A DNA stretch of 23,091 nt from Acutalibacteraceae bacterium (GCA_045540315.1 JAZQHA010000108.1:1-23091); one strand, 5' to 3'. Positions 20,745-23,091 are shown, counted from the first letter of the stretch. Translations and numbers: made by a program. The notes: generated from the sequence alone by a model not told the origin.

Positions 20745-21242
20745 TTAAGCAATACGCTTCCACATATAAGCTACTAAATATGGGGGCATATTATTGTGAG
20801 GCTAGTTACCTCCTGTTGCTAGAACAGACATAATTGTACTTTGACCATTTGAAATTAATGCTGTCCATGCACCGCTATCATTGACGCCAGCATAACCTTT
20901 AGAAGAATGAGTATGACTTGGCATCTCTGCAACTGTTAATGTATGAGTAGCTTCACCACCAGTTGTCCCAGCAATATAAGAATTACCAGCTGCTAAAATA
21001 AATCTATCTTTAATCTATTCCCAAGTTCCACCAAACTAATTAGCGGGACTAATATCATTAACACTCATATAAATAGATCCAACAGGATAAACAGCTTCGA
21101 CAATAGCATTTGGAGCAAAATCTGCTGCTTCAATAGTACCATCTGGTTGATAGCCTTCTAATATAGCATCTTGAATATCATTTAAATTATCAGCAGTAAT
21201 AATAGTTTCATTATCTTTATAATTAATCTTACTAAAAGACAT
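20745..21242 (-). CDS. Phage tail-collar-domain protein, paralog A (165 aa) with three in-frame TAGs (21036-38, 21015-17, 20802-04)
   Basis: YPVGSIYMS...SPA..FGGTWE.I..RF.L..G...GGEATHTLTVAEMPSHTH...NNMPPYLVAYMWKRIA resembles the collar-domain (microcystin-dependent-protein-like) architecture. The TAGs lie where paralogs have Q/E. The TAA stop directly abuts the RBS of the next gene. Confidence 0.55.
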
Positions 21243-21257
21243 ATAAATCTCCTTCCA

Positions 21258-21770
21258 TTATTCAATTCTTTGCCAAATACATACAACAAAGTAAGGAGGC
21301 ATATTGTTATGAGCTTCATTGCCGCCTGCGTAAGAAGTTTCAATAGCTCCCCAATCACTTACCTATACTTCCCATTGATAATCAGTTTCTACTTCATTAG
21401 TAGATACCTTAACTTCACTTTGAATAGGATTTCTATTCATATGTTGATGTAATGGCATTTGATTTATATTTAAATAGACTTGCTCTTCGCCACCTTTATC
21501 GCCGGCCGCAAATCTATCTCCTGAACCTAATAAAAATCTATTTTCAATCTATATCCAAGTTCCACCAAATAAAGCTGCAGGACTAACTCCCTCTAAGGTG
21601 GTCATATAGATACTTCCAACAGGATAGATATTGTCATAGGTCAATTTAATTTCTGGTTCTTCTTCCTCAATTACTGGTTCAGTAATTGTAGTTTCTTCTT
21701 CAATAGAAGAATCAATAATAAATTCTTCCTCTAAAATTTCAGTATCAATTGTATTAGACAATATAATCAA
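21258..21770 (-). CDS. Phage tail-collar-domain protein, paralog B (170 aa) with two in-frame TAGs (21549-51, 21363-65)
   Basis: YPVGSIYMTTLEGVSPAALFGGTWI(TAG)IENRFLLGSG...NINQMPLHQH...GGNEAHNNMPPYFVVCIWQRIE; TAA stop overlaps RBS/start of paralog A. Confidence 0.55.
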
Positions 21771-21837
21771 CTCCTTTAAAAAATATAAGAAAGCTTATTT
21801 TTTAATTATAAAATCTTGGCCGAAAGAAAAAAAAAAC

Positions 21838-21879
21838 CTTCAAGATGTTTCATTTAAAAATGAATGAAACATCTTGAAG
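21838..21879. other. Perfect 17-bp-stem hairpin in the divergent region; canonical terminator in minus orientation and 5'-leader structure of the plus-strand collar gene
   Basis: CTTCAAGATGTTTCATT / AATGAAACATCTTGAAG with 8-nt loop, A10 run upstream (a T-run on the minus strand), SD AAAGGAA and ATG 21894 immediately downstream. Confidence 0.55.
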
Positions 21880-21893
21880 AAAGGAATGATTTT

Positions 21894-22439
21894 ATGTCAT
21901 TTACAAAAATTAATTATATTGATAATGAGACAATTATAACCGCAGAAAATCTTAACGCAATTTAGGATGAAATATTAAATGTTGCTCAATCTATTTATCC
22001 TATTGGATCTATTTATATGAGTATTAGTGATGTTAGCCCAGCCAGTTTTATTGGTGGTACGTGGGAACGTATAACTGATAAATTTTTATTGGGTTCCGGA
22101 AGTAGAAGTATAGAAGCAACTGGCGGACAAGAAAGTGTTAGCTATACACCAGCAGGAAAGAACGCTGGTACTGCTTTAAGTACTTCTTAGATACCAGCTC
22201 ACGCTCATGTTCAAAAACTAGTAGCATCTACTTTAAATAATAATGCTGGTTCTACTTCTGCCACTGGTTATCAAACTAATATAGGATGGTGGACTACTAT
22301 GCAAGTACACAATGCTACAGTTGAAACAAGCAGCGTAGGTAGTGGCAGTAGTCATACTCATACATTTACTGGAACAGCATCTACTATTTCAACTATGCCA
22401 CCTTATTTAGTTGTTAATATTTGGAAAAGAGTTAGTTAA
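21894..22439 (+). CDS. Phage tail-collar-domain protein, inverted paralog D (181 aa) with two in-frame TAGs (21963-65, 22188-90)
   Basis: MSFTKINYIDNETIITAENLNAI(TAG)DEILN aligns with NLNDIQDAIL of paralog A. TS(TAG)IPAHAH aligns with INEMP/VAEMP/NINQMP of the other paralogs. The C-terminus is PPYLVVNIWKRVS. Confidence 0.55.
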
Positions 22440-22458
22440 CTAACTCTTTTCCAAATAT
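22417..22458. repeat. Perfect 42-bp palindrome at the junction of convergent collar-gene paralogs
   Basis: ATATTTGGAAAAGAGTTAGTTAACTAACTCTTTTCCAAATAT is its own reverse complement; encodes IWKRVS-stop on both strands. Confidence 0.8.
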
Positions 22459-23091
22459 ATACTGCATAATATGGCGGTATATTATTGTGAGGATATGAAC
22501 CGCCAGTATACTAAATATGGGAAGAGTCGGTAACTGCTAAAGAAGTATCAGTACTTCCTATATAAATTTGTGGACTTGCTATATATTCATGCGCATACCA
22601 TGCTGGTCTTGTTAAAGCATGATTATGATAAGGCATTTCATTAATAGTTAATGTGTGTGTAGCTTCACCACCAGTAGAGCCAACAGTATAAGAAGTGCCT
22701 GCGCCTAATAGGAATTTGTCGTCTATTCTTTCCCAAGTTCCGCCAAATAAATAAGCAGGGCTTTCATTACTAATGGTCATATAGATAGAACCAGGTGGAT
22801 AATTTTTTTCTAAATCTAAATTAAACCATCCCTAAAAACCATCTGGAGTTTTAGTTGCCATACAAACAATAACATGACTTGTAGGATAACAAATATAGCT
22901 AGCATAATCTCCGACTGAGGTAATAATACAAATACCATCGCTAGCGTTTGTTAATCCGGCTGTATAAGGAGAATTTTTTGTATTAAAATCATATTTACAA
23001 ATACAATTTTCAGTTATTGCGAAAATATCACTAACATAATCTTTATATATAATATTATCCTAAATATCATTTAAATTCTATGCTGTAATAA
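22436..23091 (-). CDS. Phage tail-collar-domain protein, paralog C (5' end beyond window), with in-frame TAGs at 23078-80, 23060-62, 22832-34, 22511-13
   Basis: Continuous frame from the window edge: ...NLNDI(TAG)DNIIYKDY...YPPGSIYMTISNESPAYLFGGTWERIDDKFLLGAG...TLTINEMPYHNH...SSHI(TAG)YTGGSYPHNNIPPYYAVYIWKRVS, ending TAA at 22436-38. Confidence 0.5.

Follow-up and report, generated by a model that had tools for sequence, protein, structure and literature searches.

A fixed-layout array of probable receptor-binding tail-tip genes carrying in-frame TAGs in a 23-kb phage contig

Introduction

Four related genes, one of them reversed and each carrying in-frame TAG codons, lie at the right-hand end of a 23,091-nucleotide contig deposited under the name Acutalibacteraceae bacterium (GCA_045540315.1, JAZQHA010000108.1:1-23091; "the window" below is this whole stretch of DNA). 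What do these genes encode, and is the reversed copy part of a DNA switch or a fixed feature of the locus? An original prediction made from the sequence alone had described an array of paralogous tail-collar-domain genes, proposed that their variable middle segments contact the receptor, and suggested that the plus-strand copy arose by inverted duplication or sits on an invertible segment. Here, we analyse the four genes, termed C1 to C4, alongside relative loci labelled L081, L082, L090/91, L092/93, L095/96, and L177/178, the contigs other than L081 and L082 having been reached via homologues of C1 and C3. The reading we favour, and consider likely, is that what we see here is part of an array of standalone receptor-binding tip genes with a fixed layout, carried by a large phage that uses genetic code 15.

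Results

Four paralogous genes of the Gp10_C family

When TAG is read through, positions 20745-23091 hold four uninterrupted paralogous open reading frames (ORFs), C1 to C4 (Table 1). All four belong to Pfam family PF21939 (Gp10_C), with scores of 75.5, 62.6, 67.1, and 65.5 bits for C1 to C4 against a gathering cut-off of 27 and alignments that run from profile positions 1-4 to 139 of 139, a membership far beyond chance. The window gene models contain 16 in-frame TAGs, 11 of which fall in C1-C4 (three, two, two, and four), confirming the predicted set of four paralogous genes, one reversed, each with in-frame TAG. The "tail-collar domain" label did not survive: hmmscan at E ≤ 0.1 returned Gp10_C alone, with no match to Pfam Collar (PF07484) for any copy, and PHROG tail collar families gave weak matches only (E = 6e-4 and 5e-3). 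The PHROG families matched by C1-C4 are annotated as tail or tail fibre proteins, which, together with PF21939, bears out their identification as paralogous tail-tip or fibre-head genes. Their description as three tandem minus-strand genes holds for the strand of C1, C2, and C4, but these do not form one unbroken run, since C3 separates C4 from C2.

The copies are 37-52% identical in protein and 52-61% in DNA, and their alignment displays a common series of motifs: YP(V/I/P)GSIYM, SPA..(F/I)GGTW, GG, MP.H.H, (N/S)(N/T)(M/I)PPY, and IW(K/Q)R. Within this series, the HxH motif reads HTH in C1, HQH in C2, HAH in C3, and HNH in C4, and both histidines (H110 and H112) are invariant across 62 homologues. 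Ahead of the head domain, C1, C3, and C4 share the N-terminal motif INY.DNETIITA.NLN.IQD with further cassette genes in the relatives, and this motif may act as a docking adaptor; queried alone against PDB, the adaptor matched nothing meaningful. C2 carries an acidic N-terminal region in its place, while in C4 an additional Cys-rich stretch of ~75 aa separates the adaptor motif, here ITAQNLNDIQD, from the Gp10_C head.

Viral contigs commonly carry two to six such genes in tandem, nearly always co-oriented. The window as a whole had no megablast match among deposited phages, and a metagenome scan with C4 returned distant relatives only, at most 44% identical.

Conserved ends and replaced middles suggest host recognition

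Eight C1 orthologues, 66-78% identical overall, have an almost invariant scaffold and first ~45 aa, and an unalignable stretch between the HxH and GGxQxHNN motifs. The same break is visible in DNA, where the window and L090 are ~90% identical by blastn and this identity is lost exactly at 20800-20907, i.e., the C1 insert. Similarly, the gene in the C3 slot of L177 has the same first 70 and last 15 residues as C3 around an unrelated middle, while C4 retains homology to the same-slot gene of L090 and L092 only in its last 55 nt (22436-22491), the body being unrelated. Kept ends with a replaced middle read, in these alignments, as the hallmark of surfaces that touch a receptor and evolve through exchange, and the predicted receptor-contacting role of the variable middle is plausible in light of the unalignable C1 inserts, the break at 20800-20907, and the swap in the L177 C3 slot.

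The closest characterised relatives point in the same direction. C1 is 44-53% identical to the C-terminal part of putative antireceptor genes of the Lactobacillus delbrueckii phages Ld3, LL-Ku, and c5, and in the related phage LL-H, whose receptor is lipoteichoic acid, host range is changed by single substitutions towards the C-terminus of Gp71, its antireceptor (PMC3870949). This homology, with the LL-H host-range mutations, lends support to the proposal of a receptor-binding or host-range cassette, and C1-C4 are probably host-recognition (receptor-binding) tail-tip proteins, as far as sequence comparison can tell. In genomes, the closest relatives of the head domain occur in gut Bacillota assemblies, which suggests gut Bacillota as the host group.

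A stable core layout with plastic surroundings

Order and orientation of the C4/C3/C2/C1/ORF136/ORF95 genes are the same in the window, L090/91, L092/93, and L177/178. ORF136, which had no significant family match in profile searches and no match in the viral-contig scan, accompanies the array in all relatives (synteny: L090, L092, L095, L177). ORF95, whose start consists of imperfect 24-nt tandem repeats encoding NGNYYID-like units (repeat families D5, D11, and D12), is kept beside the array in all relatives (synteny: L090, L092, L095). Array genes were not seen in the stretch examined of L081 and L082, two loci related via a 488-aa fibre. The array thus appears, from these comparisons, static in layout but fast-evolving.

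Beyond C4, L090 and L092 carry two or three extra cassette genes and a gene with a Flg_new domain. L095/96 has no C3 or C4 slots; in L095 1177-7508 (compared with window 10486-10564 and 20017-21854), a C2-C1-ORF136-ORF95 block is found with a Flg_new gene and three other genes, between a vault-protein-like gene and the start of the fibre operon and co-oriented with that operon, whereas in the window the array stands at the operon end.

The contig ends themselves cluster at one place. The window contig ends inside the adaptor-coding part of C4, and the L091, L093, L177, and L178 assemblies all break off in a T-run that lies 63 nt upstream of where the C4 slot starts. By those ends lies a 79-nt inverted repeat (95% identical) formed by two divergent cassette leaders (L090 7921-7999/8028-8106, and at the same place in L092), and the simplest reading of the breaks is an assembly break at this inverted repeat. 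A circular 23-kb genome was rejected as an alternative: a minus-strand ORF ends at position 18, so that the window start cannot complete the 5' end of C4.

At its other end, C4 meets C3 in a perfect zero-loop palindrome of 21+21 nt (Table 1), the palindromic junction that had been noted 3' of the plus-strand copy and is real. It originates from the identical last codons (IWKRVS-stop) of the convergent C3 and C4, whose TAA stops overlap in TTAA. The 21-nt arm compares with 8 nt for the next longest in the window and a maximum of 12 nt in shuffled sequence, and the hairpin energy is -25 kcal/mol. A U-tract 3' of the palindrome is absent on both strands, and the palindrome had no match in the viral-contig scan. 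It is identical in L090 and L092 (0/42 differences) against 14/113 and 18/113 differences in the flanks, and L177 keeps a 19+19-nt version. The palindrome may end or stabilise the C3 and C4 transcripts, or may be a crossover point for exchange of the C4 slot.

These observations also lend themselves to a more dynamic account, in which the repeated leader-plus-adaptor modules and the conserved 3' ends, with the palindrome, would undergo frequent homologous recombination without a dedicated recombinase; cassettes would be shifted, replaced, and now and then flipped within short evolutionary times, giving heterogeneous populations. Consistent with this, the cassettes that L090 and L092 carry to either side of the Flg_new gene are different ones and differ in orientation, despite flanks that are 97-99% identical; the L095/96 block is found at the opposite end of the fibre operon with its relative orientation reversed, and neither a C3 nor a C4 slot is present there; beyond the 55 nt at its 3' end, the C4 body bears no relation to L090 and L092; and the palindrome is unchanged where its flanks differ by 12-16%. 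However, apart from the 95% repeat, the modules are mutually only 73-85% identical, a poor substrate for homologous recombination, all differences were seen between lineages and none within one sample, and four lineages keep the core C4/C3/C2/C1 layout unchanged. This account overlaps the reading of a fixed-layout array, tempo being the sole difference, and we regard it as unlikely. In its strongest form, equally a long shot in our estimation, the locus would be a plug-and-play host-range system in which tips are exchanged, moved, and flipped via standard recombination handles, often enough to yield mixed populations. The handles themselves would tentatively be a leader acting as a terminator-plus-promoter insulator, the shared adaptor, and the 3' end including the 42-nt palindrome, an assignment to which we give little weight. 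If true, the repeated breaks at the C4-slot leader would represent real structural heterogeneity and not assembly failure.

Fold of the head domain and the structural-anchor alternative

When C1 homologues are combined into a profile, each motif in turn aligns with the C-terminal domain of T4 gp10 (PDB 2fkk, E = 4.8e-8), and also with the tail fibre of Pseudomonas phage Pa223 (PDB 9nxk). The aligned motifs (YPxGxIY, GxW, (t)aGxtGG, and NxxPY..VY.W.RIA) are distributed along the whole gp10-type domain, and the HxH and GQxHN motifs are common to C1-C4 and 9nxk. The best Foldseek matches of a low-confidence C1 monomer model were likewise gp10 structures (2fkk, 2fl8, and 5iv5; probability 0.8-0.9, template modelling (TM) score ~0.3). 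By analogy with other fibre tips, the head domain would be trimeric and bind metal via HxH.

Since T4 gp10, from which the Pfam family takes its definition, belongs to the baseplate wedge, C1-C4 might instead be structural adaptors, i.e., baseplate or fibre-junction anchors whose inserts match partner fibres rather than host surfaces. The at least eight upstream fibre-like genes in the window would need anchoring points, and the L095 counterpart of one fibre-like gene matches Mtd_N. Nevertheless, T4 gp10 is without the HxH motif that C1-C4 share with the Pa223 tail fibre, the closest characterised relatives are C-terminal parts of annotated antireceptors, and wholesale insert swaps fit host contact, whereas partner interfaces within a virion would need to co-vary. 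We consequently deem a purely structural role quite improbable.

Terminator and promoter-like modules at cassette borders

A hairpin lies between the C4/C3 pair and the C2-C1-ORF136-ORF95 unit, and the T10 tract behind it on the minus strand marks it as an intrinsic terminator of minus-strand transcription; read in the plus direction, the hairpin is part of the C3 5' leader. The terminator-like hairpin noted 5' of the plus-strand copy is therefore real (17-18 bp, 21837-21880, T10 on the minus strand). Just downstream on the minus strand, a promoter-like motif points at C2, and the only other window copy precedes the tail-fibre operon. Exact matches to GGYCAAGATTTTATAAT number two in the window versus 0.42 expected by chance (inverted-repeat pair I9). 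Hairpin and GGCCAAGATTTTATAAT may together form a terminator-plus-promoter module that insulates C2-C1-ORF136-ORF95.

A composite element of hairpin, T-run, and GGYCAAGATTTTATAAT occurs at 10522-10589 (+) and at 21805-21880 (-), each time before a late transcription unit, and is probably a terminator followed by a late promoter.

Cassette leaders of the relatives share a layout of TTGGYCGRAAG, A9-10, hairpin, ribosome-binding site, and ATG. Folded one by one, their hairpins have three different stem sequences that all still pair; RNAalifold gave no consensus across the leaders, in which hairpin lengths differ, and Rfam had no match in the window. The recurrence of the leader hairpin at cassette borders in relatives indicates a border element and not an inversion scar. 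In most L090 and L092 cassette leaders (e.g., L090 8040-8114), the ribosome-binding site AAGGAG lies partly within the 3' arm of the hairpin (..TTAAAGG), an overlap that could dampen translation; in the window, the ribosome-binding site of C3 lies just outside the hairpin stem.

The reversed C3 appears to be a fixed feature

Could C3, or a larger block, be flipped by a Gin/Cin/Hin-type or shufflon Rci recombinase? The arrangement invites the idea of programmed inversion: one copy runs in reverse between a palindrome and a hairpin; relatives hold cassettes in both orientations, with the 79-nt 95% inverted repeat between divergent cassette genes; the window contig, L091, L093, L177, and L178 all end at the C4-slot 5' end or leader; and the genome is incomplete, so that a recombinase could be distant. 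The hallmarks of Gin/Cin-type and shufflon systems were nonetheless lacking, and an invertible segment is not supported. The search that the original prediction had called for, for a Gin/Cin/Hin-like invertase, found no resolvase, invertase, or integrase domain among 28 window proteins scanned and, for the genes lying up to 8-10 kb away in L090, L092, L095, and L177, no recombinase in their Pfam lists. No near-identical inverted crossover sites bracket C3, the inverted repeats there amounting to 70-80% coding similarity, and the sole perfect palindrome has adjacent arms and encloses nothing. C1, C2, and C3, like the C4-slot genes in relatives, are complete genes with their own ribosome-binding site and start codon, and a constant 5' exon joined to alternative 3' exons was not seen in the array. 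In addition, C3 has the same orientation in four lineages, including one in which its body is only 60% identical, and the contig breaks coincide with an A/T homopolymer run and a near-perfect inverted repeat, a known problem for assemblers. Programmed inversion is in our judgement very unlikely, and the reversed C3 appears, on these comparisons, to be a fixed feature and not a DNA switch.

A recent inverted duplication, the other origin that had been suggested for C3, was rejected as well, given that C3 is only 40-49% identical in protein to the other three copies.

TAG is read as glutamine

The original prediction had noted the TAG codons without assigning them a meaning; here, they are interpreted as glutamine (Gln, Q) codons. 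Its statement that they occupy conserved positions applies to two columns, TW(E/I)-TAG-I in C1 and C2 and I-TAG-D in C3 and C4, which are the only ones occupied in more than one copy, and not to the seven TAGs private to single copies. In an alignment of ~140 homologous copies from viral contigs, glutamine occurs at the TWE-TAG-I column of C1 in 102/140 homologues, at the same column of C2 in 99/135, and at the GGN-TAG-PHNN column in 86/140, compared to a background glutamine frequency of 3%. Between the window and orthologues 76-98% identical in DNA, we counted eight swaps of TAG to CAA or CAG at seven codons, in array genes and in three other fibre genes. In C2, TAG is kept in L090 and L092, and at codon 71 it gives way to CGA in L095. 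Public proteins P0001 (C1) and P0121 (C3) are 100% identical with Gln at the TAG positions, and reading through the TAG at 15179-15181 in the fibre gene at 12719 restores the C-terminal NGGSA motif of its paralogue and orthologue. Stop codons are consistent with this assignment: among 30 genes, 26 end in TAA, 2 in TGA, and 2 apparently in TAG, one of the latter having a TAA four codons on and the other being a doubtful ORF, and no window gene model contains an in-frame TGA or TAA. Together, these comparisons indicate that TAG is Gln (genetic code 15) in this phage. That C1-C4 are instead decaying, inactivated duplicates with true TAG stops is hardly credible and, at the level of sequence comparison, refuted: the standard code does split every copy into fragments of 40-89 aa, but the in-frame stops are all TAG, with no frameshifts and no in-frame TGA or TAA, conserved Gln aligns with TAG and CAA or CAG replaces it in close orthologues, and TAG also occurs in other essential late genes, including the fibre gene whose read-through restores a conserved C-terminal motif.

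TAG usage is uneven along the window. The 16 left-hand minus-strand genes have no in-frame TAG, while the array genes encode Gln by 11 TAG and 15 CAA or CAG codons, compared to 5 and 65 in the remaining late genes (Fisher p = 1.6e-4). Recoded phages are reported to have TAG concentrated in late genes (bioRxiv 10.1101/2021.08.26.457843), and the window pattern agrees.

A YqeY/GatB-like gene (733-1137, -; PF09424, E = 1.2e-6) has TAG as its own stop, with a TAA four codons later. This domain type is associated with tRNA-Gln recognition, and the protein may belong to the code-change machinery.

Neighbouring genes and a retroelement in relatives

A diversity-generating retroelement acting on the variable middles was considered and rejected, with no reverse transcriptase or template repeat in the window: none of the window proteins scanned has a reverse-transcriptase domain, and no template/variable-like repeat pair is found in 19900-23091. 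L090 (11394-15854) and L092 (11357-15874) do carry a ~4.5-kb cassette with a 411-aa reverse transcriptase that is absent from the window, inserted at the bidirectional terminator (window 20013/20015 = L090 15844/11288). A 516-aa gene of this cassette has a 3'-end repeat pair (L090 ~13491-13682 and 13733-13948) resembling a diversity-generating retroelement; the repeat sits in that gene, not in the array genes.

To the left of the array, the fibre operon (10625-19946, +) comprises eight fibre-like genes, several of which share the N-terminal motif T.I.L(K/R).....W......L..GE......K.GDG...W..LPY, and several end in NGGSA-like sequences. The L095 counterpart of a 118-aa gene of this operon has a Pfam Mtd_N match. 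Further left, 7871-10399 (-) encodes an 842-aa protein with major-vault-protein shoulder and repeat domains. With a G+C of 0.47 compared to 0.36 for the window, and Gln encoded by 25 CAG and 3 CAA codons, unlike the late genes, which encode Gln via CAA and TAG, this gene may be a horizontal acquisition. Auxiliary early genes are listed in Table 1.

Table 1 Features of the array and its surroundings (window coordinates)
Feature	Position	Strand	Description
C1	20745-21242	-	165 aa, probable standalone tail-tip protein; N-terminal adaptor beginning MSFSKINYKDNETIITADNLNDIQDAIL, then Gp10_C head; PF21939 E = 1e-20
C1 in-frame TAG	21036-21038, 21015-21017, 20802-20804	-	Read as Gln codons
C1 hypervariable insert	~20800-20907	-	Homology break versus L090; orthologue alignment A2
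C2	21258-21761	-	167 aa; TTG start 9 nt after AAAGGAG; PF21939 E = 9.8e-17
C2 in-frame TAG	21549-21551, 21363-21365	-	
C3	21894-22439	+	181 aa; C1-like N-terminal adaptor; longest variable insert; PF21939 E = 4e-18
C3 in-frame TAG	21963-21965, 22188-22190	+	
C4	22436-23089	-	At least 217 aa; 5' end cut by contig end, ~14 first codons lost; PF21939 E = 1.2e-17
C4 in-frame TAG	23078-23080, 23060-23062, 22832-22834, 22511-22513	-	
Palindrome	22417-22458		Perfect, zero-loop, 21+21 nt, ATATTTGGAAAAGAGTTAGTT directly followed by AACTAACTCTTTTCCAAATAT; spans the overlapping C3/C4 stops
Intrinsic terminator	21827-21880	-	18-bp stem, 8-nt loop, T10; hairpin 21837-21880; -25 kcal/mol
Promoter-like motif	21805-21821	-	GGCCAAGATTTTATAAT; points at C2, just downstream of the minus-strand terminator
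Promoter-like motif, second copy	10573-10589	+	GGTCAAGATTTTATAAT; precedes the tail-fibre operon; only other window copy
ORF136	20310-20720	-	Directly downstream of C1, co-oriented; coiled-coil C-terminus
ORF95	20017-20304	-	Last gene of the minus-strand unit; repetitive N-terminus (NGNYYID)
Bidirectional terminator	19955-20000		Separates the plus-strand fibre operon from the minus-strand array unit; scan on both strands
T7 gp5.9-like RecBCD inhibitor	368-715	-	Auxiliary early gene
PRPP-synthetase-like protein	1211-1993	-	Auxiliary early gene
Isochorismatase-family protein	2006-2599	-	Auxiliary early gene
cREC_REC receiver-domain protein	6747-7163	-	Auxiliary early gene

Discussion

Under the reading of a fixed-layout array of receptor-binding tip genes, each gene would encode a short N-terminal adaptor that docks the tip onto a tail, baseplate, or fibre partner, followed by a head of the T4 gp10 C-terminal type with its HxH motif, presumably trimeric and metal-binding, in which the insert between HxH and GGxQxHNN would contact the host surface. 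A virion equipped with several different tips could recognise multiple receptors or hosts. Evolution of the array would proceed through duplication and through recombination that swaps either the variable middle or an entire cassette, for which the 5' leader plus adaptor at one end and the PPY...IWKR 3' end at the opposite end are possible handles, while slot orientations, including that of the reversed C3 slot, would stay fixed. Terminator-plus-promoter modules at cassette borders would organise transcription and, following the published model for code-15 phages, translation through the in-frame TAGs would need phage-supplied amber suppression, which would restrict it to the late phase.

Several observations count against this scheme. 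No amber suppressor tRNA was found in the window or in seven related loci, all genome fragments, so that the decoding machinery is unseen in these stretches. The C1 orthologue in L090 has no TAG and TAG density is not conserved, which weakens the claim that TAG specifically times the array genes, and we read no special timer into it. A motif search of the window identified no promoter driving C3, and the scheme leaves the role of the conserved 42-nt palindrome unexplained. T4 gp10, the family founder, is a structural baseplate protein and not a receptor binder. Finally, the AlphaFold2 monomer of C1 is of low confidence (mean predicted local distance difference test score, pLDDT, of 65.5), and with such a weak model the fold is supported mainly by sequence.

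Late-gene amber recoding, paralogous arrays of receptor-binding proteins, and mosaic tip evolution are already established, and of the features here, only the conserved palindrome and the modular borders of the cassettes might repay further work. Still, with its fixed slots, kept ends, and swapped middles, the locus offers a clean example of how tail-tip specificity evolves, and its conserved adaptor and scaffold around an exchangeable insert show the place at which specificity could be engineered. It also illustrates that standard-code annotation breaks all four probable host-recognition genes of a recoded phage into fragments.

Among known systems, the Mu G segment (Gin), the P1 C segment (Cin), and shufflons place alternative tail-fibre specificities in opposite orientations. 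Probable specificity genes of opposite orientation likewise stand side by side here, but no invertase, crossover sites, or constant N-terminal exon were found, and all related genomes examined show the same orientation. The window resembles code-15 gut phages (crAss-like, Lak, and the clades of Borges et al.) in that in-frame TAG occurs in late structural genes only, most genes terminate in TAA, and G+C is low (36%), in agreement with the published pattern (bioRxiv 10.1101/2021.08.26.457843; see also PMC9523058); unlike in those phages, no suppressor tRNA or release-factor gene is present in this 23-kb fragment. Compared with the T4 gp10 family and related fibre tips such as that of Pa223, the proteins of this array are standalone, 165 to ~230 aa long, with a short adaptor, instead of forming the end of a 600-aa baseplate protein, and their insert is far more variable. 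The L. delbrueckii antireceptors (LL-H Gp71 and those of Ld3, LL-Ku, and c5) have a C-terminal part homologous to the C1 head domain, but are single fibres of ~650 aa from genomes of ~30-35 kb with the standard code, whereas here four or more short paralogues occur in a recoded phage. The small modular receptor-binding proteins of lactococcal phages (e.g., TP901-1 BppL) and branched multi-receptor-binding-protein systems (e.g., CBA120 and G7C) feature short adaptor-plus-head proteins that dock on a baseplate scaffold, several different tips per virion, and evolution by module exchange. The head fold in these systems is other than that of C1-C4, but the array resembles them in its short adaptor-plus-head proteins, its several tips, and its exchange of modules.

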